DNA of 64,000 nucleotides from a phage, in the sequence record PZ452578.1, one strand, 5' to 3'. The position numbers were made by a program, and so were the translations under genes. Positions 8,014-61,049 of the stretch are shown here, one piece after another; the first letter of the stretch is position 1, and every line of letters starts with the position of its first letter. The notes beneath the pieces are model-generated. The model did not search any database, was not told where the DNA came from, and saw only the letters and a list, made by a program, of their open reading frames with translations.

Positions 8014-8028
8014 TCTTTGACGATTTAA

Positions 8029-8057
8029 GGGACCTTCGGGTCCCTTTAGTTGTTTTT
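8029..8057 (+). terminator. Rho-independent terminator after gene 23
   Basis: GGGACC-TTCG-GGTCCC hairpin followed by a T-rich run. Confidence 0.8.
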
Positions 8058-8061
8058 ATGG

Positions 8062-8069
8062 TATAAATA
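8062..8069 (+). promoter_or_regulatory. T4-type late promoter TATAAATA for gene 24
   Basis: Exact octamer 28 nt upstream of the ATG at 8097. Confidence 0.65.
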
Positions 8070-8096
8070 AATCATATAAACCAAAAGGAAAGCGCA

Positions 8097-13101: not shown

Positions 13102-13114
13102 AATATTTCCTCAG

Positions 13115-13122
13115 TATAAATA
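13115..13122 (+). promoter_or_regulatory. T4-type late promoter TATAAATA for uvsW
   Basis: Exact octamer about 30 nt upstream of the uvsW ATG. Confidence 0.55.
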
Positions 13123-13151
13123 TAGATATATTTATTACATGGTATTTAGAC

Positions 13152-23635: not shown

Positions 23636-23667
23636 CTACTATAACACAACATAAGGGACTTGTAAAC
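23636..23667 (-). promoter_or_regulatory. Sigma70-like early promoter (-35 TTTACA, 17 bp spacer, -10 TATAGT)
   Basis: Read on the minus strand as GTTTACA...TATAGT; promoter plus leader nearly identical to the copy at 39134-39191. Confidence 0.7.
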
Positions 23668-25727: not shown

Positions 25728-27824
25728 TTATCCTTGAACGAACTTGTAAGGTATGTTTGTAATATCTATGCAAGACGCAATAATTCCAAGAGATGATTCT
25801 ACTTTCTGTTTAACATTTGATGAAACAAATGATGCAAAGTCAACTCTGCCTTCTATTTCAATATCACCTGTCATTGCAACTACTTCGCCGGTTTCCATTA
25901 AACGGTCACCGTCATAAATTACCGATTCGGTGAGTTCTTCGGTGGTCATAACTTCAGCTTGAATGAGTTTTGTATTATTAGACGTGGTTCCGTCATTATT
26001 AGAAGCATCAGTTATTTTATTAACTTTGACCATCAATCCGCGCGGCAGAATAACTTCGGCTTCTGTTGCTATTCCGAGACTTCCTGGATATACAACATTA
26101 ACTTTATGAGCTCCATCAATTGCCCATCCTATTTGAACTTTAACGTATTCAGGATTTTCTTTATACGCTCTTATTTCGTTTGGATTAATAGTTATTCCTT
26201 CTTCATTTTTATCAACTGTTAATTCATTGCGAGCTTCTGGTTCTAAAAGACCAATACCAGCATGTGTAATTCCAAAACGTCCAAAAATGATAGGAGTTAA
26301 AGAAGTAGATACAAAATTTCTGAAATAGAACACTTTATTTTTAACTAGTGCTTCGTATATAGGAGCAGTCATACTTTGAGCACGATAAACTGTAATGCCT
26401 TCCGGTATGCGGTCACCATTTTCAAAAGCTGAATCTAAATTATTTATAGCAGATTCAATTTCTTTTTCACTCATTACATCATATCGTTCTGGATTGTAAC
26501 GACCTAAAAGAAGATTATTAATGTCTGTATATCCTGAACCACAATATTCTCTAATGCCGCGCTTTTGTGATGGAGTATATTTAGAACCATCACGGGCAAT
26601 AGTAATATCAATCATTGGACCTGCACCAATTCCAGAAAAGCTATAAATCATTCGTTTGAGGAATTTAGTTTTTGCTGCATTCCAGGCATTTTTAGTTATT
26701 TCTCCCCAGACTTCATCTGGTTGCCCTTTACGAGTTTTATTATGTTTATCAAGCCAATTATCTTTATATTCTTCAAAGAATTTATTAACAGCTGCTGCGT
26801 ATTTCTCTAAACATTTTATTGAAGTAGTTGGCTCATTTTTTATCGCATTGAGAATTACATCTTTAATTTTTTCAGAAACTTCATCAACCTCACTTTTTGA
26901 AAAGAATTTATAGTCATAGTGAAGTTCATTCGCAGTTCCTTCGGCAATAATTTTTGCTGCCTTAGTTTTAGAAGCTAATGAATTAATTCCAAGCTTCATT
27001 TCTTCTGCTTCGGGAATTAAAGGAGCGGTAGCAGGTTTATTGAAATTAGCTGCGGTAGATTCATACTTCTGGAATAATTCACTTTCAAATCTAGAAGATT
27101 CCAATGATTGACTTTGCGCAATTGCTCTACGGGAAATTTTAACTTTAACGATTACAGCTTGGTCAGAACGTTTATCATTTTCTTGCGCAATAGATGCTGC
27201 AATTGCCTCATTTTTAGTTACTTGGGCTCCAGTATCTTTATTGATATAAACATCACCGACCTTCGATTCAACTTTAGTAAAGAGCTCGGTACTAATTTCC
27301 GGAACTCCTGGAATGTCTTCTAGTGATACATTTTTACGATGTATAAGAATATATGCATACTTTTTATCATAATCCCAGAGTTCCTTAAGAAGGACGTATC
27401 TGCCACCTGAACGACTACGGATAAGTCTATCAGCAATAACTTGAATTTGTCGAGCTTGGCCAGCAGTTTTAGACTTAAGAATACGAAGCATACAAGCATC
27501 AATTTTATACTGACGCATCGTTTGCATTGCAACAGTAAAAACTGAATTGATATAATTAATTGGGCTTGGACCAAGACCTTTTAATTTAGCAATTGAACCT
27601 TTAGCAGTTAATGTAAAAGGAACAATATGCATCATTTTATCGCCCATCTTTAAATCGCGATTAGTATCACCTCCAGATGTATAGGTACATAAACGAAAGC
27701 CTGGTTGTTCAATTGCATCATCAACATGAACTGAAAAAATTTGCGGTATTTTCTTCTTTGGATTTAAGTTTGTAATCGGAAGAGTAGTATCTTCGTCAAA
27801 TAATTCTGTAATAAGTTCCATCAT
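25728..27824 (-). CDS. alt: Alt ADP-ribosyltransferase, upstream copy
   Basis: 698 aa; N-terminus MMELITELFDEDTTLPITNLNPKK; motifs VYRAQ, FVSTSL, TEAEVILPRG; 3 nt from the downstream paralog. Confidence 0.88.
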   Translation of the reverse strand: MMELITELFDEDTTLPITNLNPKKKIPQIFSVHVDDAIEQPGFRLCTYTSGGDTNRDLKMGDKMMHIVPFTLTAKGSIAKLKGLGPSPINYINSVFTVAMQTMRQYKIDACMLRILKSKTAGQARQIQVIADRLIRSRSGGRYVLLKELWDYDKKYAYILIHRKNVSLEDIPGVPEISTELFTKVESKVGDVYINKDTGAQVTKNEAIAASIAQENDKRSDQAVIVKVKISRRAIAQSQSLESSRFESELFQKYESTAANFNKPATAPLIPEAEEMKLGINSLASKTKAAKIIAEGTANELHYDYKFFSKSEVDEVSEKIKDVILNAIKNEPTTSIKCLEKYAAAVNKFFEEYKDNWLDKHNKTRKGQPDEVWGEITKNAWNAAKTKFLKRMIYSFSGIGAGPMIDITIARDGSKYTPSQKRGIREYCGSGYTDINNLLLGRYNPERYDVMSEKEIESAINNLDSAFENGDRIPEGITVYRAQSMTAPIYEALVKNKVFYFRNFVSTSLTPIIFGRFGITHAGIGLLEPEARNELTVDKNEEGITINPNEIRAYKENPEYVKVQIGWAIDGAHKVNVVYPGSLGIATEAEVILPRGLMVKVNKITDASNNDGTTSNNTKLIQAEVMTTEELTESVIYDGDRLMETGEVVAMTGDIEIEGRVDFASFVSSNVKQKVESSLGIIASCIDITNIPYKFVQG

Positions 27825-35400: not shown

Positions 35401-35636
35401 AGTACGCCATACACCCTTTGTGCTTCAACTAATCCATCAAAATCCAGTTTAAGATGCGATATTTGATCGCCATCACCTGGATTTACAATTACTAATACTG
35501 AACGAGGAGTTTCGGTAATAACACGAACCGATGTTTCAGGAAATCGTTCAGAAACCTTATTTACTAATTCCTGTGCAAATAGTTTAACTTTTTCTTGGAA
35601 TTCTTTAACAGTAATTGGTTTTTCACTTAGTAGCAT
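35397..35636 (-). CDS. Hypothetical protein
   Basis: 79 aa ORF. Confidence 0.65.
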   Translation of the reverse strand: MLLSEKPITVKEFQEKVKLFAQELVNKVSERFPETSVRVITETPRSVLVIVNPGDGDQISHLKLDFDGLVEAQRVYGVL

Positions 35637-36157
35637 GTTGATCCAAGCTCCTTACTTTCAACGTTTTTAACTAATTTGACAGAAACTAATTCAGCATCTT
35701 GAGTAATCATTACCGGGCCTTCTTCATACTCTTCAAGATATTCTAGAGCTTTCTTTTTAGCTTCTTCCTTCGTATCAGTTTGAGCATAGATATAGAACAT
35801 ACAACCAGTAATACCTACTACTTTCCACTTAATTTCTTTATCAGTTTTAATTTCAAATTTACTTACAGAATCATCTTTTTGAACTTCTTCGAAAAAAGAA
35901 TATTCTAACATATAAGCAATTGAAAATAGCGGGCTAACTTTATAGGATTCACCCATTACATCAACAGCTTTATACCAACAATCATCAATTTCGCGTTTAA
36001 TGCTAATAACATTTTTCGCAGGATCTATTTTTACTTTAAATGAATTTTCCCCAATAAACTGGGCAATTCGTTTATTAGCCCCGCAAGTTTCATTAAAAAT
36101 ATCTTTATATCCAGCTTTAAAGCGATAAACCTTATCTTCTTCAAACCATTCGCTCAT
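35627..36157 (-). CDS. Hypothetical protein
   Basis: 176 aa ORF. Confidence 0.7.
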   Translation of the reverse strand: MSEWFEEDKVYRFKAGYKDIFNETCGANKRIAQFIGENSFKVKIDPAKNVISIKREIDDCWYKAVDVMGESYKVSPLFSIAYMLEYSFFEEVQKDDSVSKFEIKTDKEIKWKVVGITGCMFYIYAQTDTKEEAKKKALEYLEEYEEGPVMITQDAELVSVKLVKNVESKELGSTCY

Positions 36158-36558: not shown

Positions 36559-37759
<1,201 letters not shown>

Positions 37760-37763
<4 letters not shown>

Positions 37764-39194: not shown

Positions 39195-40782
<1,588 letters not shown>

Positions 40783-40790
40783 AATAAAAT

Positions 40791-40804
40791 GGGCCTTGCG
40801 GCCC
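40791..40804 (-). terminator. Hairpin after nrdB
   Basis: GGGCC-GCAA-GGCCC hairpin on the minus strand followed by ATTTTATT, right before the denA ATG. Confidence 0.6.
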
Positions 40805-40809
40805 ACTCC

Positions 40810-41979
40810 TTAAAAATATTTTTTAAAACTCATCATAACTTTATCATCAACATCATTATCAATCTGTGCAACAAGGTAAGATGACAGTTCTACTTCTTGC
40901 GGCGCGGATTGAACATTATCAGAATTAAGGTATTCACGAATCCAAGGATATGGATGTTTAACCGGAGCATCGGTAATTGGGCATGGAAGACCACACTGTT
41001 TCATACGAGATACAGTTAAGTAATCAATAAAGCTCCACATGCTATTTGTATTTAATCCAGGAACATCACCATCTTTAAATAAATGAACTGCCCAATCTTT
41101 TTCTTGGCGGTTAACTTCCATGAAAATATCAACTGCTTCTTGTTCACACTCTTGAGCAATTTTAACCCATTCATTGCCATCAATGCCAAGCTGAAGTTGA
41201 CGAATAATATATTGAGTGCCTTTAAGGTGAAGCTGTTCATCACGAGCAATGAACTTCATAATCTTGGCATTACCTTCCATGATTTCCATATTCTTGTGGA
41301 AGTTAAAGGTACATGCAAAAGATACATAAAAACGAATAGCTTCCAATGCGTTGATTACATGGAGGCAAAGATAAAGAGATTTCATCAGCTCTCGTTTGGC
41401 GTATTCAACGACTTTACCAAGTTCATCTTTGCGCCAACCTTCAGACAAAATTCCTTCGTATTCTTCTTTAGCGTTTTCCCATTCACGGGTTTTAACCAAG
41501 ACATCATCGTAATATCGCCCAATGGACTCAGCACGTTTCATAATAGCTTCATCTAATACAATCTCATCAAACACCTTCGATGGATCAGTATAAAGATTTC
41601 GCATGATATGAGTATATGAACGACTGTGAATAGTTTCACTAAAAGTCCATGTAGCAACCCATGTATCAAGGCTTGGGTCTGAAATTAATGACATAAGTAC
41701 AGCAGATGGTGCACGACCCTGAATGCTATCCAAAAGTGATTGATACTTCAGGTTGTTAGTAAAAATATTTTGCTGATACTGAGGAAGCTTATTAAATTGT
41801 GCAGCATCCATCATCAAGTTTACTTCTTCAGGACGCCAGAAAAATGACAATTGCTTTTCGGTTAAATCTTCAAAAACTTTATGACGTTGAATATCATAAC
41901 GTGCAATACCAAGACCTGAACCGAAGAACATAGGTTCTTTTAAAACATCAACTGGATTTGTATTAAAAACTGTGCTCAT
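40810..41979 (-). CDS. nrdB: Ribonucleotide reductase small subunit, uninterrupted
   Basis: 389 aa continuous ORF, near T4 NrdB length; no intron-sized interruption. Confidence 0.92.
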   Translation of the reverse strand: MSTVFNTNPVDVLKEPMFFGSGLGIARYDIQRHKVFEDLTEKQLSFFWRPEEVNLMMDAAQFNKLPQYQQNIFTNNLKYQSLLDSIQGRAPSAVLMSLISDPSLDTWVATWTFSETIHSRSYTHIMRNLYTDPSKVFDEIVLDEAIMKRAESIGRYYDDVLVKTREWENAKEEYEGILSEGWRKDELGKVVEYAKRELMKSLYLCLHVINALEAIRFYVSFACTFNFHKNMEIMEGNAKIMKFIARDEQLHLKGTQYIIRQLQLGIDGNEWVKIAQECEQEAVDIFMEVNRQEKDWAVHLFKDGDVPGLNTNSMWSFIDYLTVSRMKQCGLPCPITDAPVKHPYPWIREYLNSDNVQSAPQEVELSSYLVAQIDNDVDDKVMMSFKKYF

Positions 41980-42030
41980 AAATTTTCCACTTAGTTAATA
42001 GATAGTGACTCGTCCGTGAGTCAAATTATA

Positions 42031-44295
42031 TCATAATTTACAGGATGAACAATCTTCAGCTTTTGGAGTTTCTATTTCATAATCATCAGTACCAGAACCA
42101 TCACGGGTATTATGATAATAGAAATTTTTTCCGCCAAAATACCAAAAATACAAAAGGTCATCAATCATTATTGACATTGGAACCTTTCCTTTTGGAAAAA
42201 TCTGTGGGTCATAATATGTATTCGCTGAAGCTGATTGACATACCCATTTCAGCATAATAGCTACCTGCGTAAGATAAGGTTTATTACCTTTCTTAGCTAA
42301 TTTCCATGTATAATCATAGAGGTCTATGTTATGCTCAATATTGGGCACGACTTGATTAAAGGAGCCCTCTTTTGATTCTTTAACAGAGACTGGTCCACGT
42401 GGAGGCTCGATACCGTTTGTACTGTTAGAAACTTGGGAAGATGACTCACATGGCATAAGTGCTGATAATGTGCTATTACGGATGCCAAAGAGCTTAAGGT
42501 CTTCCCGCAGCGACGACCAGTCACAAACGTATTTTGGAGCTGCGATTTGGTCAATCTTTTTATTGTACCAGTCGATAGGTAATTCGCCTCGAGACCAACG
42601 AGTGTCTGAATAATATTCACAAGGTCCTTTTTCTTTGGCGAGCTTAATGGATGCTTTAATGAGTCCATACTGTAATCTCTCAAATAGTTCATGTGTTAAA
42701 TCGTTAGCATCTTCATAAGAAGCAAAGTTACTTGCCAGCCAAGCTGCATAGTTAGTAACACCTACACCGAGGTTACGACGCTTTTTAGCTTTTTCTGCTT
42801 CAGGAACTGGATATCCTTGGTAATCCAAAAGATTATCAAGAGCACGAACTTGGACTTCTGCCAATTCATTAATTTTATCTTGGTCTTGCCAGTCAAAATT
42901 ATCCAGTACGAATGCAGAGAGAGTACACAATCCAATTTCAGCATCAGGACTATTCACATCATTTGTTGGAATAGCAATTTCACAGCACAAGTTACTCTGA
43001 CGAATAGGTGCCTTTTCACGAATAAACGGAGTATAGTTATTCGTATTATCAATGAACTGTACATAAATCCTTGCTGTTCCTGAACGTTCAGTCATGAGCA
43101 ATTCAAATAGTTCACGGGCTTTAATACGCTTTTTACGAATATTAGGGTCTTTTTCTGCTGCTTCATATAATTCACGGAAACGGTCTTGGTCTTTAAAATA
43201 AGAATAATAAAGCTCGCCACCCATTTCATGCGGACTGAACAAAGTAATGTAATCGTTCTTTCCGAATCGTTCCATCATCAAATCATTCAGTTGAACACCA
43301 TAATCCATATGACGAATGCGGTTTTCTTCTACGCCTTTGTTATTTTTCAAAACGAGAAGATTTTCAACTTCCAAATGCCAAATAGGATAATAAGCAGTAG
43401 CAGCGCCGCCACGAATTCCACCCTGTGAGCATGATTTAACAGCAGTCTGAAAATGTTTCCAAAAAGGAATAACACCAGTATGGCGTACTTCACCCATGCC
43501 AATCTTAGAACCTTCGGCACGAATCATACCAACGTTAATACCAATTCCAGCGCGTTTAGAGATATATTCTACAATCGAAGCGGAAGCCTTATTGATAGAC
43601 TTCAATGAATCACCTGCCTCAATAACAACGCATGAACTAAACTGCCGAGTCGGAGTACGGCAACCAGCCATAATAGGAGTTGGCAATGAAATCTGTCGAG
43701 TAGATACTGCTTCATAAAAACGGATAACGTGTTTTAGTCTATCAACAGGTTCATCTTGATGCAATGCCATTCCAATAGTCATAAATGCAAACTGCGGAGT
43801 TTCATAAATTTGACCAGTGGTTTTATCTTTAACTAGATATTTTTCTTTTAATTGCATCGCTCCGGAATAAGTAAATTCCATATCCCGCTCGTGCTTAATT
43901 TTTGATTCTAAAAATGTAATTTCTTCCGCAGAATATTTTGACAATAATTCAGGGTCATATTTACCTTCATTTACACAGTAAGAAATATGGTCAATAAATG
44001 AACGTGGTTCATACTGCCCATAAACATGCTTACGAAGAGCAAACATTAAACAGCGCGCAGCTACGTATTGATAATCAGGCTCTTCAACTGAAATAGAATT
44101 CGCAGCAGCCTTAATTACAATGGTTTGAATATCATCAGTTGTCATTCCATCACGGAGATAAGATTTAATATTTTCATATAATTCATAAGGATCTACTGAT
44201 GTTCCTTCAGCTGCCCAAGACAAAACTTTAATAATTTTTTGCGGGTCAAAGCTCTGAGAAACACCACTACTTTTGATAACATTAATTAATTGCAT
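42031..44295 (-). CDS. nrdA: Ribonucleotide reductase large subunit
   Basis: 754 aa, T4 NrdA length. Confidence 0.93.
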   Translation of the reverse strand: MQLINVIKSSGVSQSFDPQKIIKVLSWAAEGTSVDPYELYENIKSYLRDGMTTDDIQTIVIKAAANSISVEEPDYQYVAARCLMFALRKHVYGQYEPRSFIDHISYCVNEGKYDPELLSKYSAEEITFLESKIKHERDMEFTYSGAMQLKEKYLVKDKTTGQIYETPQFAFMTIGMALHQDEPVDRLKHVIRFYEAVSTRQISLPTPIMAGCRTPTRQFSSCVVIEAGDSLKSINKASASIVEYISKRAGIGINVGMIRAEGSKIGMGEVRHTGVIPFWKHFQTAVKSCSQGGIRGGAATAYYPIWHLEVENLLVLKNNKGVEENRIRHMDYGVQLNDLMMERFGKNDYITLFSPHEMGGELYYSYFKDQDRFRELYEAAEKDPNIRKKRIKARELFELLMTERSGTARIYVQFIDNTNNYTPFIREKAPIRQSNLCCEIAIPTNDVNSPDAEIGLCTLSAFVLDNFDWQDQDKINELAEVQVRALDNLLDYQGYPVPEAEKAKKRRNLGVGVTNYAAWLASNFASYEDANDLTHELFERLQYGLIKASIKLAKEKGPCEYYSDTRWSRGELPIDWYNKKIDQIAAPKYVCDWSSLREDLKLFGIRNSTLSALMPCESSSQVSNSTNGIEPPRGPVSVKESKEGSFNQVVPNIEHNIDLYDYTWKLAKKGNKPYLTQVAIMLKWVCQSASANTYYDPQIFPKGKVPMSIMIDDLLYFWYFGGKNFYYHNTRDGSGTDDYEIETPKAEDCSSCKL

Positions 44296-44612
44296 AAGTC
44301 CTCAACTTGAAAATCGTCTTTAAACAATCGGTTAACTATATGAGCTATTATATCACCATGACACGGCTTTGGTTTACATGTGCATCCTAGCCTCATTCCA
44401 CGTAAAGGCTCTAAATGTGCTTTAGTTATTTCTCCGGATTTAATTCGACGTATAAAATCTTTTTTGAATAATTCAATGGCAGCCTCCCGGCTGCCAGCAT
44501 CTTTACCGACGTAATTTCCCCAAAATGTACCACGGTGAATATTAACATCAAAGTCGGATTTATATTTATTCACTACCTGGCATAGACGGCCCGCGCGGTG
44601 ATAATTCGTCAT
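44286..44612 (-). CDS. Hypothetical protein with Cys/His cluster
   Basis: 108 aa; C-terminal [12 protein letters not shown] cluster; overlaps the nrdA start. Confidence 0.7.
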
Positions 44613-44841
44613 ATTGTTTTTCCGTTAAAACAGTAATATCATAGTAACAATCTGAAGAAGTTTTAACTGTAGAAATTTTATTATCAAAATACTCACGAGT
44701 CATTTTATGAGTATAATATTTTTTGCCATAAATGATAATAGGCTGATTTGGTCCTGGAACTTCTAACTCGCTTGGATTAGGAAGTGTAAAAAGAACGACA
44801 CCAGAAGTATCTTTAAATCGTAAAATCATATATCCTCGCAA
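44566..44841 (-). CDS. Hypothetical protein
   Basis: 91 aa ORF between td and nrdA. Confidence 0.65.
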
Positions 44842-44852
44842 TTAAATTAAAA

Positions 44853-45713
44853 TTATACCGCCATTTTTCCTTTCAAGACACCGTGGGACTGATAATCTTT
44901 GAGAACGAAATCTTTAGGCCTGAGTTTAAGAATGTATTCCAATTGTTCTTTAGTAGAAAGATAGCGGAATTTATAAGGCAATCCGCCTATTACCAGTTCA
45001 CAAAGCTCTTTAGGTTCACGACGCAAAATTTCTTTACACTGTTCTACGTGATTCATATAGATATGAGTATTACCGCCAGAAAATATCAAATCTCCAGGAA
45101 TAAGATTACACATCTTAGCTACAATATGAACTAACGCAGCATATGATGCAATATTAAATGGAAGACCGAGGAAAACATCTACCGAACGTTGATACCACTG
45201 CAAATCTAAATAGCCATTACGCACATTAAACTGATAGAACATATGACAAGGCGGTAATGCCATATATTTAAGTTCAGCTGGATTCCACGCAGAAACAATT
45301 TGACGCCTATCATTTGGCAGTTTTTTAATACGATCAACAACTTCTATAATTTGGTCTACACCGCCAAAATCACGCCACTGTTTTCCATAAATTGGACCAA
45401 GTTCACCGCTATGGTATCCTAAATCTTTTGCCTGATTTTCGTAATTTTCATCCCAGACTGTTTTGCCTTGGATTAACGAATCGTGTTGAATTAATCGTAA
45501 ATCATTAACATTTGTGCTTCCTGATAAAAACCATATTAGCTCAGCAATGCATGCATTCCAGGCGAGCTTTTTAGTTGTTACTGCAGGAAAGCCTTTAGTT
45601 AAATCCCAACGCAATTTAGTACCGAACAGAGCAATTGTTCCTGTGCCCGTTCGGTCATCGGTTTCATAGCCATTTTCAAAAATGTCTTTAATTAAATCTT
45701 GGTATTGTTTCAT
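44853..45713 (-). CDS. td: Thymidylate synthase, uninterrupted
   Basis: 286 aa continuous ORF, T4 TS length; active-site region ALPPCH present. Confidence 0.93.
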   Translation of the reverse strand: MKQYQDLIKDIFENGYETDDRTGTGTIALFGTKLRWDLTKGFPAVTTKKLAWNACIAELIWFLSGSTNVNDLRLIQHDSLIQGKTVWDENYENQAKDLGYHSGELGPIYGKQWRDFGGVDQIIEVVDRIKKLPNDRRQIVSAWNPAELKYMALPPCHMFYQFNVRNGYLDLQWYQRSVDVFLGLPFNIASYAALVHIVAKMCNLIPGDLIFSGGNTHIYMNHVEQCKEILRREPKELCELVIGGLPYKFRYLSTKEQLEYILKLRPKDFVLKDYQSHGVLKGKMAV

Positions 45714-45758
45714 TTAGTACCTTATATAAATTATAATACATTTTATGAAGCTAAATAA

Positions 45759-46106
45759 TCAATACGGTTTAGCATCAAATTTTCTCTCAATTTCAGGTGT
45801 GAAATATAATTCTTTACCACGTTTGGAAAAGCGACCAATAATATGATAATTATTCTCATCAAACGTAATATTACCAATATCCATAGCTTTCAACCAAATA
45901 TCGATATTTCTATCCAGCTTTATGTCAAAATTCCAATACAGAGAACTATTACCGAAAATACTGCAAGCGGATTCAGTGAAACAACTGCTATAAATCTTGT
46001 CTTTAGGAACTACTAATTGATAGACACCTTTAATAAACTGAGGACCCTGCCACTTTGGCTGTTTCTCGTCTTTTTCTAATAGAATAGGGTAATAATTAAA
46101 ATTCAT
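45759..46106 (-). CDS. Hypothetical protein between td and frd
   Basis: 115 aa ORF flanked by AT-rich spacers; no motif recognised. Confidence 0.6.
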   Translation of the reverse strand: MNFNYYPILLEKDEKQPKWQGPQFIKGVYQLVVPKDKIYSSCFTESACSIFGNSSLYWNFDIKLDRNIDIWLKAMDIGNITFDENNYHIIGRFSKRGKELYFTPEIERKFDAKPY

Positions 46107-46125
46107 ATTTCCGCCACGCGTTATT

Positions 46126-46710
<585 letters not shown>

Positions 46711-46965
46711 TCAAAACCCCCTTTCAATAAACCATTCAGTGGCTTTATTAGCATCAAAGAATAATTCTTCATATGTCTTTTCTTTGTTTTCAAAAACTGT
46801 CACACAAACACGTTGACATTCTCCACAGTATTCTTCTGACATACTTAAAGCGTCAGAAAACATTTCTTTAAATTCATTTAAATCAGGATTATGCAATGCG
46901 TTAAAAATTGCATAATCGAATTCATCATTCATAAATTCAAATACAAAAATCATATTACCTCCCAC
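46711..46965 (-). CDS. Hypothetical protein
   Basis: 84 aa ORF with Cys pairs (CGEC...C). Confidence 0.65.
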   Translation of the reverse strand: MGGNMIFVFEFMNDEFDYAIFNALHNPDLNEFKEMFSDALSMSEEYCGECQRVCVTVFENKEKTYEELFFDANKATEWFIERGF

Positions 46966-47309
46966 TGAAAGGGGCCAGAAGCAAATCCGCTATCTTTAAT
47001 CATTTTAACTAAAGTTACCATTCCTCTGTTAACTGCTTGTGAGATTTCATCAAAAACTTCATCACTATCACCATAAAGATCGCTAAAAAGTTCTAACACG
47101 TTCTTCTGAACTTTTAATTTACAGCCAACAAATTCGCCTACAGTAAATTCGTTTCCGCCAACTCCAGCGTAAAACGTAATTACACCAGTTAATGGTCTTT
47201 CACTAGAACATAGGTCGTGTGATAAATTAATATAAGCCGTCCCGGGTGCAGTTTTAAGTTGGCAACGAATACTTACTCGAGCAATTCCAGCTACACGAAT
47301 GTCAGACAT
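46950..47309 (-). CDS. Hypothetical protein
   Basis: 119 aa ORF. Confidence 0.65.
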   Translation of the reverse strand: MSDIRVAGIARVSIRCQLKTAPGTAYINLSHDLCSSERPLTGVITFYAGVGGNEFTVGEFVGCKLKVQKNVLELFSDLYGDSDEVFDEISQAVNRGMVTLVKMIKDSGFASGPFQWEVI

Positions 47310-47319
47310 ATTATTTTCC

Positions 47320-47562
47320 TCAAACAGACTTTTTCACAATTTTCCAATCAGCTTTAAACTGCTCGACGTCAGAATGGTAAATCCAAAATCCTGCGCTTTC
47401 TCCATCCTCATAAAGAGGGCATCCATCACATTCATCTTCCCACCCCATATCGCGTAAAAGGTGTTCAGCTTTTTCAACAAGTTCAGAATCTTTACCGATG
47501 ATATTATAATACCATTTACCTCTAACTTCCGAGTCTTTGATGCTCTGACGTTGTAATCTCAT
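47320..47562 (-). CDS. Hypothetical protein
   Basis: 80 aa ORF. Confidence 0.65.
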   Translation of the reverse strand: MRLQRQSIKDSEVRGKWYYNIIGKDSELVEKAEHLLRDMGWEDECDGCPLYEDGESAGFWIYHSDVEQFKADWKIVKKSV

Positions 47563-47619
47563 TTTATTCTCCTCAAGTTGATAAGGCTATAGTATCATTA
47601 CCATAGCCTGTTGTAACAT

Positions 47620-47847
47620 TTATTTTTGGATTAAGCCCATATAAAATTTAGCATCTTCAGGATACATGCCATCACAATACTCATTGGTCATAAAACTAAT
47701 AAGGTCTTCAAGAGGACCTTGGACCTCAATTTGAATACTAAAGAATTGGGTATCTTTAATGTAAGCCATACTCAAAGAAGGATAACGATTGCGGATAACT
47801 TCGTAAGTGTATTCAAAATCAACAATATCAATATTAACCTTAGCCAT
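47620..47847 (-). CDS. Small early protein, paralog A
   Basis: 75 aa from the [13 protein letters not shown] start (RBS GAGGA); paralog of the ORF at 48334-48564. Confidence 0.7.
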
Positions 47848-47876
47848 TTTATTTTCCTCATGTAGTTGATAGGGTA

Positions 47877-47906
47877 ATAGTATCACACTACTACCCTTAC
47901 TGTAAA
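47877..47906 (-). promoter_or_regulatory. Sigma70-like early promoter (-35 TTTACA, 18 bp, -10 TACTAT)
   Basis: Minus strand GTTTACAGTAAGGGTAGTAGTGTGATACTAT upstream of paralog A. Confidence 0.6.
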
Positions 47907-48287
47907 CTACTTTTTGAAAGTTTTTCGCAAAAGTTCAATGATTTCATCTACATTGTTTTCATCTACAATGCAGTGAATTTTTGTTACGCCAGAAACCTTG
48001 TCTTTGACTTCAACTTCTTCAGAAGTCGGTTCTTTATACTCACGAAAACAATGAAATTCGTCTTCGCAAATTTCTAAAAGTCTATCTTTGAGGTAAAAAT
48101 GCTTTCCATTTGCGCATTCAATGTGTTTTACTGCTTTATATCCATTAGCGACGGAAACTTCTTTAACTTCAAACCATCCGCCATTATCTCGAATCGCTTT
48201 AACTATTGATGAATTAGAACGTGGGCTATAATTAATAAATGTATCAATAAGTCTTGGAACAAGCTCATACTTTTTACCGGTATACAT
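47907..48287 (-). CDS. Hypothetical protein
   Basis: 126 aa ORF between the two paralogs. Confidence 0.65.
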
Positions 48288-48333
48288 TACGTTTTCCTCA
48301 TTTTAATAGGGGCTGTAATAGCCCCCTCGATAA

Positions 48334-48564
48334 TTATTGTTCAATCAGTCCCATGTAAAATTCTGCGTCTTCAGAATCCATGCCATCACAATATTCATTA
48401 GCCATAAAGCGGGTAAGGTCTTCAAGAGGACCTTCAATGACAATAGAAAAATTGCAATAATTGGGATCATCATGAATACTTGTGATACTAAGTTCAGGAT
48501 AACGATTACGAATAATTTCTTCGATATATTCAAAATCAACGATGTCAATATCAACTTTAGCCAT
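48334..48564 (-). CDS. Small early protein, paralog B
   Basis: 76 aa from the [13 protein letters not shown] start (RBS AAAGAGGAA); shared motifs with paralog A. Confidence 0.7.
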
Positions 48565-48607
48565 ATTATTTTCCTCTTTAATCATCAGCAGTATTGCCGA
48601 TAGTTGT

Positions 48608-48636
48608 ATAGTACCATGGAAGAACAGGGATGTAAA
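48608..48636 (-). promoter_or_regulatory. Sigma70-like early promoter (-35 TTTACA, 17 bp, -10 TACTAT)
   Basis: Minus strand GTTTACATCCCTGTTCTTCCATGGTACTAT, just downstream of the gene 32 terminator. Confidence 0.65.
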
Positions 48637-48668
48637 CAGTTTTGTGAAAAAATTTTTGAAATAAAAAA

Positions 48669-48695
48669 GGGGACCCTAGAGGTCCCCAATTAATT
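48669..48695 (-). terminator. Rho-independent terminator after gene 32
   Basis: GGGGACC-TCTA-GGGTCCCC hairpin followed by TTTTTTAT on the minus strand. Confidence 0.85.
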
Positions 48696-48709
48696 AGTAA
48701 TATAATCTA

Positions 48710-49618
48710 TTAAAGGTCATTCAAAAGGTCATCCAGGTCCGTGTCATCAGCACTAGATGAACTGCCAGAGCTTGAGCTCATAAAATCATCTTCAGTTTTT
48801 GTATTGAAGTCATCAACATTGAATGCATCCAAATCATCAGCAACTTTATCAGCTTTCTTAGCAGCAGTTGCAGCGGCACCGCCCATCACAGCAGTTCCCA
48901 TAACTTGACCGAATTTAGTATTCAGTTCTTCAAACGATTTGAATTTATCTTTAGAAGTCATTTCAGAAAGGTCAACCATTTGTTCGAACAGTTCTTTCTG
49001 GAAAGATTCATCATCAATGTTTGGAATCGCAGATTGATTCAGGAATTTAGATTCGTCGTAGTTACTAAAACCAGAAACTTGTTTAACTTTCAGTACAAAG
49101 TTAGCACCTTCCCATGGACAAGTTACATCAACCGGAGTTTCACCCATTTCAACATCAACCGCAATCATCGCGTTGATTTTATCCCAGATTTTCTTACCGA
49201 AACGGTATTTAAATACTTTACCTTCGTTTTCTGGAGCAGCTGGGTCTTTTACTACAAGAATGTTAGCCCAGTAAGAAGTTTTACGTTTAACAAGACCGTA
49301 CTCTTTATTGTCAGTGTTGTACAAATCATTTTTACTGATGTACTGACATACTGGACAAGAATCGTAATCACCGTGGGTAGATGAACAGTTTTCAATATAC
49401 CATTTACCATTTTTCTTGAAACCGTGATTTACAAGAATTGCGAATGGTGCTTGTTCATCATTTTTAGACGGAAGAAAACGAATTACTGCTTGACCGTTAC
49501 CCGCATTATCGAGTTTCAGTTTCCACTCGCCTTTATCTTCAGAAGAAAAACCACCCTTATTTCCAGCCAGTTTAGCCATTTGTGCAGCGAGTTCAGCAGT
49601 AGATTTACGTTTAAACAT
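48710..49618 (-). CDS. 32: Single-stranded DNA-binding protein gp32
   Basis: 302 aa; sequence recognised as T4 gp32 including the zinc-site region and acidic Ser/Asp-rich C-terminus. Confidence 0.95.
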
Positions 49619-49680
49619 TTTTATTTCCTTTTAATTTAATTAACAGTTGGTGCTATGACGATGTATGACCTCATAGCTGG
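49619..49680 (-). promoter_or_regulatory. Gene 32 mRNA leader: hairpin plus AU-rich unstructured tract
   Basis: Minus strand GCUAUGA-GGUCAUACAUCG-UCAUAGC hairpin followed by AACUGUUAAUUAAAUUAAAAGGAAAUAAAAUG. Confidence 0.6.
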
Positions 49681-49700
49681 TCAGTGAGATAATTATAATC

Positions 49701-49708
49701 TATTTATA
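49701..49708 (-). promoter_or_regulatory. T4-type late promoter TATAAATA upstream of gene 32
   Basis: Reverse complement of TATTTATA about 80 nt upstream of the gene 32 ATG. Confidence 0.5.
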
Positions 49709-49716
49709 ATAAGCAA

Positions 49717-50370
49717 TTAATACTTACAAGATTTCACAGTTTCAATGAAAACACTTTTAGCTTTCTGTGAATCAATATTTAAAATTTTTCTATAAGCTTT
49801 TAACTTTATAGAATAATTATTCCAAACTAAATTATCAGTCTGTTCATCATGTTTATCAATTATATTTAAAAACGAATCAAGTAAGATAAATGTCTCAAAC
49901 GAAATTATATTCGATTGAAGCAGTTTAAAAATATAACTTGACTGAACCTTTGGATTATATTCAAAGATTTCTTTAAAAGCAGAAACTTCAACTTTCTTAC
50001 TAAAATAATAAATGTTGCGAATATCTTCTTCAAACTTAAATTTAATTTGCTTTAAGCGTCCGATATATTCACGATAAAACACAAGTGCATCAGCGTCAGA
50101 GATGTCACCAATCCAAGCATCTTGGTTAGCAACAAGATTGCTTATAAAGATTAAAGCAAGTTCCTTTAATTTATATTTTTCTGATAACTTCTGGAAAAAA
50201 TACTTATCCCTTCGCTTTTGATAAGCGGCATCAGACACCCGCATGCACCAATTATACTTAATTACATCATACTTTCCATTCATATGTTGTTTTATCATTA
50301 AGTATAATTTATAAACTGATTTACCATCAATGTATCTTTCACCACCAGCAGGCATGCGGAGTTTAATCAT
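49717..50370 (-). CDS. 59: Helicase loader gp59
   Basis: 217 aa, T4 gp59 length; position between 33 and 32. Confidence 0.88.
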   Translation of the reverse strand: MIKLRMPAGGERYIDGKSVYKLYLMIKQHMNGKYDVIKYNWCMRVSDAAYQKRRDKYFFQKLSEKYKLKELALIFISNLVANQDAWIGDISDADALVFYREYIGRLKQIKFKFEEDIRNIYYFSKKVEVSAFKEIFEYNPKVQSSYIFKLLQSNIISFETFILLDSFLNIIDKHDEQTDNLVWNNYSIKLKAYRKILNIDSQKAKSVFIETVKSCKY

Positions 50371-50705
50371 AGCAGAAAATCTAATGTATTAGTTTTTTCA
50401 CAACGAACAACAGAAGGACGTAAAAGATTTTCGTCAATGGCTTCTGACTGAATTTTTTCAATTATACCCGAAGGAATAAATTTAGCAAATTGAGTTTCAG
50501 GAATAGAGTTTTCTTCCAAGAATGCTGTCGTAGCTTCAAGATAACTCATTCCAAACTCTTCTACCATTTTTTCAATAATAAATCCATTTTCTTGACGATC
50601 AAGAAGCTTTGCTATTTCATCCTTTTCTTTCTTAATTGAAAGTTCTTTTTCTGAAAGACCGGTCTCATCGACCGGACGAATATCATTTAGAGAAAACTGT
50701 GTCAT
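50367..50705 (-). CDS. 33: Late transcription co-activator gp33
   Basis: ORF track gives 115 aa; the ATG at 50705 (MTQFSLND) gives 112 aa, the T4 gp33 length. Confidence 0.85.
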   Translation of the reverse strand: MTQFSLNDIRPVDETGLSEKELSIKKEKDEIAKLLDRQENGFIIEKMVEEFGMSYLEATTAFLEENSIPETQFAKFIPSGIIEKIQSEAIDENLLRPSVVRCEKTNTLDFLL

Positions 50706-50952
50706 AAAGTTCAACTACCTCTTCAGTTTCAGCTTCAAACACATCACGATTATCTTTATGATACAAAGCTAATAGACGATTAAACATCTTACCATCAACG
50801 CCAAGTTCATCTTTGGCACGAATTCGAATATCTTTAATCAGTTCATTATAACCGGAAATTTTCAGTTTATGATCAGATGCTTCTTTAATAAATTTAGCTA
50901 AGTCTTCGCCGTGGATAGCTTCATCAAATTCAACCATTTCTTTTTTAGCCAT
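50683..50952 (-). CDS. dsbA: Double-stranded DNA-binding protein
   Basis: 89 aa, T4 DsbA length; overlaps the gene 33 start. Confidence 0.85.
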   Translation of the reverse strand: MAKKEMVEFDEAIHGEDLAKFIKEASDHKLKISGYNELIKDIRIRAKDELGVDGKMFNRLLALYHKDNRDVFEAETEEVVELYDTVFSK

Positions 50953-50960
50953 TATTCACC

Positions 50961-51878
50961 TCAAAATTCATTAATGCTATTAGTTAATTTAGAAAGACCC
51001 GCTTTTACAAAATATGAATAAATTTTGCCACGCGGTGGTAATTTATATGAATTATAGTAATTCACAATGTTTGAAGCAATATTATCAGGAATATAATCAA
51101 AATCAATTAGAACTAAATTTTCTTTATAACGATTATATTCAGATTCTGTGAGAAGCACCTTAGCTTGCTCACGGTCATTAGCAATAGCTTCAACGATTGA
51201 AGTTTTCATTGAAGGAGTTCGTTCACCTTCAACTCTGGTAAACCAAAAGTCAGATCGTACTTTAACTGAAGCAACGTTATCCTTTTTGTCGCCTTTAAGG
51301 ATTTTAGTCATACAGTCAATTTCAGCAGAACCGCTTTTAATTTTAACCCATTTCTTATGCATCGGTGACCATTGCTTAACATTTGGATATTTGTGAAGCT
51401 GTGTAAAGTCACCATCCGATGAAATGATTAAAATCTTGTGTCCTTCTAAAGAGAACTTTTTAACAAGAACAGCAATGTGGTCATCTGCTTCATACTTATC
51501 AATATCCATAACAATGTATGGCATATAAGCTTTTAATTCATCTATAACTTTGTGGCTGGATTCAAAATAACCTTCCCAGTCCCAAGTCGATTCTTCTCGT
51601 GCTTTTCCACGGTTTTTCTTGTAATAATACGCGAAATCACGACGCCAGTATCCAGATTTCGCGTTATCAATACACAGTACAATTTTAGTGTATCCAAGCG
51701 TTTTTGCTTTTTTGACATTAAACTTAATTGAGTTCAATATCAAATGACGAACCATTGATAAATTAATTTTTTCTTTATCTGGGAAGTTTACCAGAGCAGT
51801 TGAAAGCGCAATTTGACTAAAGTCAATAAAGCAAATTCCTTCTTTGTAATCTTCATCCAGCATCATTTCTAAATCCAT
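50961..51878 (-). CDS. rnh: RNase H (5'-3' exonuclease / flap endonuclease)
   Basis: ORF track gives 310 aa; the ATG at 51878 (MDLEMMLD, RBS GAGG) gives 305 aa, the T4 RNase H length. Confidence 0.9.
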   Translation of the reverse strand: MDLEMMLDEDYKEGICFIDFSQIALSTALVNFPDKEKINLSMVRHLILNSIKFNVKKAKTLGYTKIVLCIDNAKSGYWRRDFAYYYKKNRGKAREESTWDWEGYFESSHKVIDELKAYMPYIVMDIDKYEADDHIAVLVKKFSLEGHKILIISSDGDFTQLHKYPNVKQWSPMHKKWVKIKSGSAEIDCMTKILKGDKKDNVASVKVRSDFWFTRVEGERTPSMKTSIVEAIANDREQAKVLLTESEYNRYKENLVLIDFDYIPDNIASNIVNYYNSYKLPPRGKIYSYFVKAGLSKLTNSINEF

Positions 51879-57703: not shown

Positions 57704-60700
57704 ATGGCTACTTTAAAACAAATACAATTTAAAAGAAGCAAAACTGCAGGAGCACGTCCTGCCGCTTCAGTATTAGCCGAAGGTGAATTGGCTATAAACT
57801 TAAAAGACCGTGTACTTTTTACTAAAGATGACCAAGGAAATATTATTGATTTAGGTTTTGCTAAAGGCGGTAGCATTGACGGGAATGTTATTCATAAAGG
57901 CAATTATAACCAAACTGGTGATTATACTTTAAATGGCACATTCACTCAGACAGGTAATTTTAATTTAACTGGTATTGCTCGAGTAACTCGTGATATTATT
58001 GCCGCCGGGCAGATTATGACTGAAGGCGGAGAACTTATTACAAAAAGTTCAGGTACAGCGCATGTTCGTTTTTTCGATGGCAATAGTCGCGAACGTGGAA
58101 TCATTTATGCCCCGGCTAATGACGGTTTAACTACACAAGTACTTAATATCAGGGTTCAAGACTATGCCGCTGGTAGCGAAAGCACTTATGCATTTTCAGG
58201 CAGTGGCCTATTTACTTCACCTGAAGTATCAGCATGGAAATCTATTTCGTCTCCACAAATTCTGACCGACAAAGTCATTACAGACGGGAAGAAGGCAGGC
58301 GATTATGACATCTATTCATTAGCAAATAACACCCCATTATCTGAAAGCACTACTGCTATTAATCATCTTCGTGTCATGCGTAATGCAGTCGGTTCTGGTA
58401 TTTTCCATGAAGTTAAAGATAATGATGGGATAACCTGGTATGCCGGTGACGGGTTGGAGGCTTATCTTTGGTCGTTTACGTGGTCCGGTGGGTTGAAAGC
58501 GGGTCATTCTATTTCTATAGGTACCCCAGGCGGTCCAAAAGGATATTCTGAATTAGGAACGGCCTCAATTGTTCTTGGGGATAATGATACCGGATTTAAA
58601 TGGCATCAGGACGGATATTATTTCAGCGTTAATAATGGAACAAAAACGTTTTTATTTAGTCCCAGCGAAACAACTAGCCTAAGAAAATTTGTAGCTGGAT
58701 ATTCTACTAATGGAACCGATTTAACTACTCCTCCAACTGAAAATTATGCTCTTGCTACTGTCGTGACATATCACGATAATAACGCGTTTGGAGATGGCCA
58801 GACTCTTTTAGGATATTATCAAGGCGGTAATTATCATCATTATTTCCGCGGTAAGGGTACCACAAACATTAATACTCATGGCGGTTTGTTAGTTACTCCA
58901 GGTAATATTGATGTTATTGGCGGTTCTGTTAATATTGATGGTATAAATAATGCTTCTACCCTGCTATTTAGAGGCAACACAACTGGTAGTAGTTCAGTTG
59001 ATAATATGACAATTTCCGTTTGGGGCAATACGTTTACTAATCCTAGTGTAGGTAATCGTAAAAACGTCATGGAAATTTCTGATGCAACTAGTTGGATGAG
59101 CTATATTCAAAGACTTACAACAGGTGAAGTAGAAATGAACGTTAATGGTTCATTTGAATCATCTGGTGTTACTGCTGGAAATAGAGGAGTTCACACAACA
59201 GGCGAAATTTCATCTGGTGCAGTGAATGCGCTTCGCATTTGGAATGCAGATTATGGAGCCATTTTTAGACGTTCAGAAGGTAGTCTTCATATTATTCCAA
59301 CTGCTTACGGTGAAGGTAAACACGGCGATATCGGTCCACTTCGCCCATTTAGTATGGCTTTAGATACTGGTAAAGTTACTATTCCAGATTTACAATCAAG
59401 TTACAATACGTTCGCTGCTAACGGTTATATTAAATTTGTTGGTCATGGAGCGGGTGCCGGCGGTTATGACATTCAATATGTTCAAGCGGCTCCTATTTTC
59501 CAGGAAATCGATGATGATGCTGTAAGCAAATATTATCCTATTGTTAAACAGAAGTTTCTAAACGGTAAATCCGTTTGGTCTTTAGGTACTGAAATTAATT
59601 CAGGTACATTCGTTATTCATCATCTGAAAGAAGATGGTTCACAAGGCCATACGTCTCGTTTTAATCAAGACGGTACTGTTAACTTCCCAGATAACGTTCA
59701 GGTCGGCGGCGGTGAAGCTACTATTGCTCGTAATGGTAATATTTTCTCAGATATTTGGAAACCGTTTACTTCTGCCGGTGATACTACAAATATTCGCGAT
59801 GCTATTGCGACTCGTGTTTCGAAAGAAGGCGACACGATGACCGGTAAGTTGATTATTAGAAGAGATTCTGACGCTATTAACTTAGCTGCGCCTTCGACAA
59901 CTGATGCAAGTTACCTTCTTTCTACAGGAGCTGGTGAAAATCTATGGTATATTGGTAAAGGCGGCGCTGATAATACTGTATCATTCTACAACTATAAAAC
60001 CAGTGGGGCTGTGCAAATTAACTCTATTGGTGAAATCGCGCTGATTCCACAAGGTGCTGCAACATTTAACTTCAACCGCGATCGTCTCTATATAAATGGG
60101 TCTCAATGGACTGCACATCAAGCTGGTGACTGGGTTAACCAATGGCGTCAAGAAGCTCCTATATTTGTGGATTTTGGTAGTGTCGGCAATGACTGCTATT
60201 ATCCTATTATTAAAGGAAAATCTGTTATTACGAATGAAGGATACGTATCTGGTGTTGATTTCGGTATGCGCCGTATCACTAACCAATGGGCTCAGGCTAT
60301 TATTCGTGTTGGTAACCAGGAAAATGCTAGCGATCCGCAAGCTATCTTCGAATTCCACCATAATGGAAACATGTACGTTCCTGACATGGTTAAAGCTGGA
60401 GTAAGATTATCAGCTGGTGGAGGTGACCCTGCATGGACAGGCGCATGTGTTGTTATTGGTGATAATGACACTGGGTTAGTTCATGGCGGTGACGGTCGTA
60501 TTAACATGGTTGCAAATGGAGTGCATATTGCTTCATGGTCGGCCGCTTACCATCTCCATGAAGGTCTTTGGGATACCACTGGTGCTTTGTGGACTGAACA
60601 AGGAAGAGCTATTATTTCTTTTGGTCATTTAGTCCAACAAAGCGATGCCTATTCCACATTTGTCCGCGATGTTTATGTCCGTTCTGATATTCGTGTTAAA

Positions 60701-61018
60701 AAAGACCTTGTTAAATTTGAAAATGCTTCTGAGAAGCTTTCTAAAATTAACGGTTACACTTATATGCAGAAGCGAGGCCTAGATGAAGAAGGCAATCAGA
60801 AATGGGAACCTAACGCCGGTTTGATAGCTCAAGAAGTTCAAGCTATTTTGCCTGAATTAGTTGAAGGTGACCCTGATGGCGAAGCTTTACTTCGTTTGAA
60901 CTATAACGGTGTAATTGGTTTAAATACAGCTGCAATCAATGAGCATACTGCAGAAATTGCGGAACTTAAATCAGAAATTGAAGAACTTAAAGCATTAGTT
61001 AAATCATTGTTAAAATAA
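57704..61018 (+). CDS. 37: Long tail fibre distal subunit gp37 with C-terminal chaperone-like domain
   Basis: 1104 aa; N-terminus [46 protein letters not shown] typical of gp37; C-terminal 115 aa resembles self-cleaving intramolecular chaperone domains and ends in a coiled-coil-like stretch. Confidence 0.9.
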
Positions 61019-61023
61019 TAAGA

Positions 61024-61037
61024 GGGGCTTCGGCCCC
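61024..61037 (+). other. GC hairpin between genes 37 and 38, no U-tract
   Basis: GGGGC-TTCG-GCCCC followed by TTGGAGG (the gene 38 RBS); may be an RNA stability or processing element rather than a terminator. Confidence 0.5.
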
Positions 61038-61049
61038 TTGGAGGTTTAT

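Follow-up and report, generated by a model that had tools for sequence, protein, structure and literature searches.

The genes td (thymidylate synthase, 286 aa; 44853..45713), nrdA (ribonucleotide reductase large subunit, 754 aa, the same length as in T4; 42031..44295) and nrdB (ribonucleotide reductase small subunit, 389 aa; 40810..41979) lie on the minus strand of the 64-kb stretch of phage DNA analysed here (the window). Pfam assigned td to Thymidylat_synt (PF00303, 1-266 of 266, E 6e-94), nrdB to Ribonuc_red_sm (PF00268) and nrdA to the ATP-cone, Ribonuc_red_lgN and Ribonuc_red_lgC domains. A previous sequence-only reading had described td and nrdB as continuous, and the ORF coordinates, the Pfam matches and the alignments to the spliced T4 genes all agree with it: both are uninterrupted over their whole length, with no introns elsewhere in either gene. 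Their messages are continuous and need no splicing before translation, and neither gene calls for splice-aware annotation.

Collinear with the type genomes and highly identical to them in nucleotide sequence, the window is a Tequatrovirus segment of the T2/RB27 type. Its gene order follows that of T4 98.5-162.4 kb (gene 18 to arn; 92-98% identical by blastn), and synteny was also seen with T2 and AR1. The nearest sequenced relatives are RB27 (NC_025448; 98.4% identity over 63.3 kb, and the best match in the phage collection for the last 25 kb of the window, at 97.8%) and AR1 (NC_027983; 97.2% identity to window positions 40000-47000). The parts of the window that remain unaligned to T4 comprise inserted ORFs, a second alt copy and a T2-type gene 37-38 tail-fibre region, the latter two being annotated as such in AR1 and RB27.

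The td gene is collinear with spliced T4 td (274/286 aa identical), and its frame runs on across 45165/45164 (minus strand, after td nt 549), the point at which blastn placed the T4-only 1017-nt I-TevI intron; the junction at this empty site reads ...TTCCTCGGT|CTTCCATTT. I-TevI requires CNNNG and tolerates many substitutions in its long target. An uninterrupted target (~38 bp) spans the insertion site in the window, and the CAACG cleavage motif is retained at 45187..45191 (minus strand; -27 to -23 from the insertion site). The enzyme cuts 23 and 25 nt upstream of the insertion site (PMC2988022). Between -45 and +30 the window departs from T4 by seven synonymous differences (six for T2), and one substitution in the window's site, -19 A>G, is shared by neither T2 nor AR1.

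The nrdB frame, aligned with T2, AR1 and spliced T4 nrdB, is likewise continuous across 41313/41312 (minus strand, after window nt 667, T4 nt 664; blastn places the insertion point at about 41312-41315), where T4 has a 598-nt intron with a defective I-TevIII, seen as a 600-bp insertion in the blastn alignment. The junction reads ...TTTTGCAT|GTACCTTT, and from -31 to -3 the window matches the T4 exon sequence at every base. The cuts made by I-TevIII, at -14 and -16 (PMC1865063), correspond to about 41326-41328 in the window, and T4 nrdB deleted of its intron is an in vitro substrate of the enzyme (PMC1865063). A MobE-dependent nick has been mapped at T2 nrdB nt 122-126 (PMC2790892); its counterpart in the window (41854..41858, minus strand) is a T2-type allele, with a single base different from T2 in this stretch (nt 129, three bases off), whereas T4 differs at many. 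Between the T2-type nick region and the empty intron site sits a T4-like tract (nrdB nt 181-480, about window 41500-41799), identical to T4 at 299/300 positions as compared to 279/300 for T2, 289/300 for AR1 and 92-98% per 100 nt for RB27.

Four intergenic spacers are equally empty of the genes that T4 holds there. The nrdA/nrdB spacer (51 nt; 41980..42030, minus strand; 50/51 identical to T2), occupied in T4 by nrdB.1 and mobE (700 bp), has a terminator-like hairpin (TGACTCACGGACGAGTCA) at 42023-42006, for which alone we used a promoter/terminator consensus scan whose counts were not above shuffled expectation. The inh/uvsW spacer (50 nt; 13102..13151, plus strand; 50/50 identical to T2; segE, 635 bp, in T4) contains a TATAAATA late-promoter-like box, and the first 150 nt of the adjoining uvsW match T2 at 149/150 and T4 at 111/150 positions. 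The 59/32 spacer (98 nt; 49619..49716, minus strand; 98/99 identical to T2; segG, 623 bp, in T4) contains a TATAAATA box and the gene 32 leader, and the 23/24 spacer (83 nt; 8014..8096, plus strand; 83/83 identical to T2; segD, 789 bp, in T4) a GC-rich hairpin and a TATAAATA box. These short spacers hold ordinary phage signals only (hairpins, late-promoter boxes and the gene 32 leader). The segD site is a sixth empty site that the sequence-only reading had not listed.

That reading had given the first three spacers the same lengths and had stated where T4 carries its insertions; the T4 RefSeq annotation places I-TevI, I-TevIII, mobE, segE and segG at the stated positions, and in the blastn alignment the T4-only insertions fall exactly at these points (the positions of all six elements are given in Table 1 of PMC2988022). 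The T4 segment (NC_000866) carries the td intron, the nrdB intron, nrdB.1 with mobE, segE, segG and segD, whereas the window carries none of them, and T4 exon sequences flank the same insertion points as in the window. As these differences are presence/absence polymorphisms between collinear, 92-98% identical genomes, chance is not at issue.

No T4-type GIY-YIG or HNH homing endonuclease was found in any frame of the 64-kb window by tblastn or profile HMMs, which bears out, and extends, the earlier statement that the usual T4 sites lack such ORFs. The best E-value among the 15 T4 endonucleases compared to the window by tblastn was 0.019, and the positive control, denA, was 100% identical to T4 DenA over 144 aa. 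For GIY-YIG ORFs (related to Seg or to I-TevI/I-TevII) the best six-frame profile HMM score was E = 0.057 (tblastn, 0.019), and for HNH ORFs (related to MobA-E or I-TevIII) the best values were 0.32 by tblastn and 2.7 by the Mob profile HMM, with the Seg/Mob profiles recovering every T4 member, as expected of models built from those very proteins. A SegF match at window 27045-27380 (E 0.019, 25% identity) lies inside alt, has no profile HMM support and was rejected as chance. Of the 17 ORFs scanned with Pfam, denA itself was the only one to match GIY-YIG (endonuclease II; 40372..40806, minus strand; PF01541, E 4.8e-6), a host-DNA-degrading enzyme and no homing endonuclease. The ORFs of the window without a T4 counterpart (176, 100, 115, 84, 119 and 88 aa) showed no nuclease domain (Pfam, E up to 0.1) and belong to PHROGs families that are all of unknown function, so that a reading of them as novel homing endonucleases is not supported.

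T4 intron sequence is absent from the window (blastn matches <=33 nt, E >=0.03), and Rfam gave no match in it at the gathering threshold, whether to a group I catalytic core or to any other family. The latter result is informative for ORF-less introns only: the gathering-threshold scan also misses the T4 locus with both of its ORF-bearing introns (and is thus no evidence against that kind of intron), but it detects, as a positive control, the ORF-less td intron of U115 (RF00028 over 282 nt, 70.3 bits), and an intron of this kind in the window would therefore have been seen. An L20_leader match from the Rfam E-value scan of 40000-51000 (23.4 bits vs a gathering score of 58.7) was set aside as chance. 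T4-type elements could sit elsewhere in the genome, beyond the 64 kb (e.g., in nrdD).

The distribution of the elements among relatives places the empty state in context. Although the record counts are rough and redundant (RefSeq and GenBank duplicates were both counted, and many records are T4 laboratory stocks), they show each T4 element in a minority of relatives within the phage collection: td matches 600 phage records (40 out of an evenly spaced sample of 60 being continuous across the insertion site) and the T4 td intron 260 (197 near full length), the nrdB intron occurs in 191, segE in 159, mobE in 143, segG in 142 and segD in 55, and an insertion-spanning nrdB probe gave a one-piece match at >=80% coverage in 449 of 647 records. 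In the literature T4 figures as "an oddity" for its 15 endonuclease genes, and reports that these introns occur variably among the T-even phages date from 1987-1989 (Pedersen-Lane and Belfort 1987; Quirk et al. 1989, as cited in PMC2988022). The empty state is the common condition of T-even phages and no special feature of this phage, and the absence of T4 introns and endonucleases among relatives has been known since the late 1980s and reviewed repeatedly. This context was missing from the sequence-only reading; being both common and long known, the empty state does not make the locus remarkable, and the observation is a correct but routine annotation point that matters little.

We thus regard the window, very probably, as a T2/RB27-type segment with unoccupied alleles at all six T4 mobile-element sites, in the state common among T-even phages. 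The suggestion that it is a 'naive locus' and potential recipient appears reasonable, and is the standard textbook reading of such alleles, because the empty spacers are nearly identical to those of T2 (an efficient recipient of T4 elements), the mapped target regions are retained (the I-TevI CAACG motif, the I-TevIII cut region and the T2-type MobE nick region) and the window holds no homing endonuclease. We infer the susceptibility of its alleles to cleavage from the near-identical T2 alleles, cleavage and conversion having been shown experimentally only for T2 and for T4 intron-deleted alleles (PMC2790892, PMC1865063, PMC2988022); for SegE, SegG and MobE the comparison covered the alleles, which are T2-like.

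Should the window phage share a host cell with a T4-like donor, the donor endonucleases would be expected to break its DNA beside the empty sites. The predicted cuts lie about 23-25 nt upstream of the td insertion point for I-TevI, at -14/-16 in nrdB for the I-TevIII of RB3, in uvsW for SegE and in gene 32 for SegG, with a nick by MobE around nrdB nt 122-126. Repair of the double-strand breaks from the donor template would then insert a copy of the element, together with flanking markers, into the genome of the window phage. Such copying would constitute homing, and would be seen genetically as marker exclusion. For experiments on homing and marker exclusion, a genome of this kind could be used as a clean natural recipient.

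The same empty sites would be left if the lineage had once carried the elements and lost them precisely (e.g., by recombination with an intron-free relative), which would make the sites 'cured'. We consider this history unlikely. The cycle of gain, degeneration and loss of homing elements is established and such a loss would fit it, and exchange of DNA between the locus and T4-like alleles has clearly taken place, as witnessed by the T4-like tract of nrdB; yet no element has left a remnant, the spacers follow the T2 type base for base and most relatives are empty. Since precise loss through an empty allele leaves the sequence of a never-invaded site, sequence alone cannot separate the two histories.

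The alleles could also be immune instead of naive, if synonymous substitutions in the targets gave resistance to at least one T4 endonuclease. The seven differences from T4 in the I-TevI target, -19 A>G among them, and the single base, three away from the MobE nick site, at which the window departs from T2 speak for such resistance. However, the CAACG motif is intact, the I-TevI target is known to be tolerant of change, the I-TevIII site from -31 to -3 equals the T4 intron-deleted in vitro substrate (PMC1865063), and T2, with six differences from T4 in the same stretch of td, is nonetheless an efficient recipient (PMC2790892). Altogether, we deem resistance quite improbable.

The T4-like tract of nrdB admits a further, rather speculative reading, to which we give little credence: it may be the scar of a past endonuclease-initiated gene conversion, with a T4-like phage as the donor, that was resolved before reaching mobE or the intron, i.e. 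a natural 'escaped' co-conversion tract. If true, this tract and the private -19 A>G would mean that the phage has encountered these elements and come through without taking them up.

Lastly, the uninterrupted state could be an illusion, with an intron or an endonuclease gene missed at some other place in these genes or within the window. This idea could draw on the blindness of Rfam to the ORF-bearing introns of T4, but is exceedingly improbable and, for the window, refuted, as td, nrdB and nrdA encode full-length proteins collinear with those of T4, T2 and AR1, the blastn matches to T4 introns are no longer than stated above, the ORF-less kind is detectable (U115), and every part of the window unaligned to T4 was examined, its inserted ORFs being without a nuclease domain.

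The reading of the window as a segment with unoccupied alleles accords with what is found in other T-even phages. RB27 and AR1 have the gene order and the empty sites of the window, and the whole genome of RB27 holds no Seg, Mob or I-Tev homologue; the window differs from both in the T4-identical tract of nrdB and diverges from them in the frd.2-frd.3 region. In U115, td is the same gene, interrupted at the same insertion point (after ...GGGT) by an insert of ~320 nt without an endonuclease ORF, whereas nothing occupies this site in the window; in HP3, td is in two pieces with ~328 nt extra, whereas that of the window is in one piece.

The closest parallel in arrangement is T2 (NC_054931), whose nrd-td, inh-uvsW, 59-32 and 23-24 regions are organised identically to those of the window. 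According to its annotation, T2 has uninterrupted td (861 nt) and nrdB, and lacks mobE, segE, segG and segD; its spacers (51, 50, 99 and 83 nt) are 98-100% identical to those of the window. Like the window it has an extra ORF between frd and td, and unlike the window it is without small extra ORFs between frd and frd.1. Its td shares 93.5% nucleotide identity with that of the window, and its nrdB is longer (392 vs 389 aa) and differs in a variable segment (~aa 171-200), the window version of which is common to KMB40, slur03 and Lutter and not to RB27 or AR1. In T4 x T2 crosses on homing and marker exclusion, T2 has classically been the recipient. Devoid of these elements itself, it gets them from T4 at high frequency (PMC2790892), and in mixed infection these acquisitions include the T4 td and nrdB introns, mobE and seg genes (PMC2790892, PMC2988022).

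We found that the window is devoid of the homing-endonuclease elements of T4, six of which lie in the corresponding T4 segment and none here. The segment is collinear as a single block with T4 98.5-162.4 kb (gene 18 to arn; blastn) and shows 98.4% identity to phage RB27 across 63.3 kb, while the 7 kb surrounding td and nrdB had their best matches (97% identity) in the Tequatrovirus genomes AR1 and RB27. Pfam confirmed the identities of nrdB, nrdA, nrdA.1, nrdA.2, td, frd, denA and rnlA in this region. In the 165-kb genome of RB27, the nearest relative, no Seg, Mob or I-Tev homologue was detected or annotated. Both td (44853-45713, minus strand, 286 aa) and nrdB (40810-41979, minus strand, 389 aa) are continuous, as the sequence-only reading had described and as ORF coordinates, Pfam and alignment to the spliced T4 products bore out. 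The td product covers positions 1-266 of the 266 in the thymidylate synthase model and is identical to the spliced T4 enzyme at 274 of 286 residues; NrdB is collinear with its T4, T2 and AR1 counterparts except for one short variable segment.

In the T4 RefSeq annotation, td contains I-TevI and nrdB a defective I-TevIII; nrdB.1 and mobE occupy the nrdA/nrdB interval, segE lies between inh and uvsW, and segG separates 59 from 32. Edgell et al. (2010; PMC2988022, Table 1) give identical positions, and the T4 insertion points on which the sequence-only reading relied are correct. The blastn map located T4-only insertions at exactly these positions: the td intron (1017 bp) at window 45164/45165, the nrdB intron (600 bp) at about 41312-41315, nrdB.1 plus mobE (700 bp) in the nrdA/nrdB spacer (41980-42030, 51 nt), segE (635 bp) in the inh/uvsW spacer (13102-13151, 50 nt) and segG (623 bp) in the 59/32 spacer (49619-49716, 98 nt), the three spacer lengths being those reported earlier. 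A sixth empty site, absent from the initial list, is the 23/24 spacer (8014-8096, 83 nt), where T4 carries an antisense segD (789-bp insertion). The four empty spacers hold common phage signals and nothing else: 23/24 has a GC-rich hairpin with a TATAAATA box, inh/uvsW a TATAAATA box, nrdA/nrdB a hairpin, and 59/32 a TATAAATA box with the gene 32 leader. None of them retains traces of a decayed endonuclease gene.

Precise removal of elements that were once present would leave the same sequence as a locus never invaded, and the two histories cannot be separated from sequence; we consider such secondary loss unlikely, with the mosaic structure of nrdB (41360-41800, minus strand) as the one hint of past exchange. 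Nucleotides 181-480 of the gene match T4 at 299 of 300 positions (T2, 279/300; AR1, 289/300; RB27, 92-98% per 100 nt), and the following ~100 nt (NrdB aa ~171-200) are only 58-68% identical to T4, T2, AR1 and RB27. This variable segment is shared at 96-97% with KMB40, slur03/08/14 and Lutter, among which KMB40, slur03 and Lutter are intron-free phages. The 5' end of nrdB and its spacer are RB27/T2-like, with T4 only 59-78% identical there.

The td insertion site follows nt 549, between TTCCTCGGT and CTTCCATTT. The I-TevI target is 38 bp long, with cleavage 23 and 25 nt upstream of that site (PMC2988022); the CAACG cleavage motif is intact 27 to 23 nt upstream (window 45191-45187). Relative to T4, the stretch from -45 to +30 contains 7 synonymous differences in the window and 6 in T2, and the A>G change at -19 is private to the window. 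These few synonymous changes are the single argument for refractory alleles, that is, target-site changes conferring resistance to one or more of the T4 endonucleases, but the cleavage motif is preserved and T2 is equally diverged yet susceptible, which makes this explanation distinctly improbable. Around the nrdB insertion site (window 41313/41312), the sequence agrees exactly with the T4 exon from -31 to -3, an interval that spans the cut positions given for RB3 I-TevIII (-14 and -16; PMC1865063). The MobE-dependent nick was mapped to T2 nrdB nt 122-126 (PMC2790892); there the window is of T2 type, with a single difference at nt 129, and T4 differs at many positions. SegE acts in uvsW, whose first 150 nt match T2 at 149 positions and T4 at 111; for SegG, gene 32 nt 51-100 match at 49/50 and 43/50, respectively. 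T2 is devoid of these elements, and when T4 and T2 co-infect, the seg genes, mobE and the introns pass to the progeny at high frequency, which accounts for marker exclusion (PMC2790892, PMC2988022). Judged by sequence, the window alleles are those of T2, the experimentally proven recipient; we infer that such T2-like alleles would permit cleavage and conversion of this phage's DNA, and the interpretation of the locus as a naive potential recipient is sound.

T4-type homing-endonuclease ORFs are likewise lacking across the whole 64-kb window. With all 15 T4 homing endonucleases as queries, tblastn gave a best E of 0.019 (the positive control, denA, was 100% identical); neither the Seg (GIY-YIG) nor the Mob (HNH) profile HMM, each derived from the T4 proteins, had a hit below E = 0.05 in any of the six reading frames, and the three T4 introns gave only chance blastn matches of at most 33 nt. 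The Rfam scan was also empty; since Rfam was equally silent on the T4 locus, whose td and nrdB introns both bear ORFs, its use in screening for introns calls for caution, and this negative carries no weight for introns of that kind. Phage U115 has an ORF-less intron at the same td site (insert ~320 nt, core 282 nt, 840-1121 of its td locus, no endonuclease ORF), which RF00028 detected at 70.3 bits, hence an intron of this kind would have shown in the window. HP3, L14 and MLP2 apparently carry a U115-like td insert, judging by size. No nuclease domain was found in six small ORFs located in DNA absent from T4, and all six belong to PHROGs families without an assigned function. A hidden intron or homing endonuclease is excluded for the window.

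Other regions diverge from T4. Minus-strand ORFs lacking a T4 counterpart and present in RB27 and AR1 lie between cd.2 and cd.3 (176 aa, 35627-36157), pseT and pseT.1 (100 aa, 37461-37763), and frd and frd.1 (84 aa, 46711-46965; 119 aa with DUF7247, 46950-47309). Whereas frd and td overlap in T4, here they are separated by a 115-aa ORF (45759-46106, minus strand; PHROG 1928, function unknown, no significant Pfam domain), also found in RB27 and AR1 and present but unannotated in T2. The frd.1-frd.3 region (47500-48300) is a local hypervariable patch (61-88% identity to T4, RB27 and AR1), partly T2-like (95% at 48200-48299), which includes, in DNA absent from T4, an extra FRD3-family paralogue (47620-47886). 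Two full-length alt paralogues (23667-25724 and 25728-27824, minus strand, 685 and 698 aa) occur as in T2, RB27 and AR1, whereas the second T4 copy is reduced to the fragments alt.-1 and alt.-2. The hoc product (10993-12411, minus strand) has 472 aa, as in RB27, versus 376 in T4; blastn shows a ~305 bp internal repeat relative to T4 that probably encodes an extra Ig-like domain. Gene 37 of the distal tail fibre (1104 aa) and gene 38 (262 aa; together 57704-61826, plus strand) show no nucleotide alignment to T4 and are of the T2/AR1 adhesin type, in contrast to the T4 gp38 chaperone type.

Among phage-collection records (redundant, hence approximate counts), each T4 element is clearly in the minority. 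Of 600 records with td matches, an evenly spaced sample of 60 comprised 40 continuous genes, 2 with a short ORF-less insertion and 14 split by a long intron; the T4 td intron was found in 260 records (197 near full length), the nrdB intron in 191 (including unrelated Pectobacterium and Klebsiella phages), mobE with nrdB.1 in 143, segG in 142, segE in 159 and segD in 55. A probe across the nrdB insertion site matched in one piece, with at least 80% coverage, in 449 of 647 records. The published literature agrees that the empty state is usual among T-even phages other than T4, and variable intron occurrence was published in 1987-1989 (references 11-13 of PMC2988022). The original observation is fully confirmed, and the empty sites are an ordinary, well-documented and already known T-even state: T2 is annotated with the same arrangement, and its spacers closely resemble those of the window (83/83 at 23/24, 50/50 at inh/uvsW, 50/51 at nrdA/nrdB and 98/99 at 59/32).
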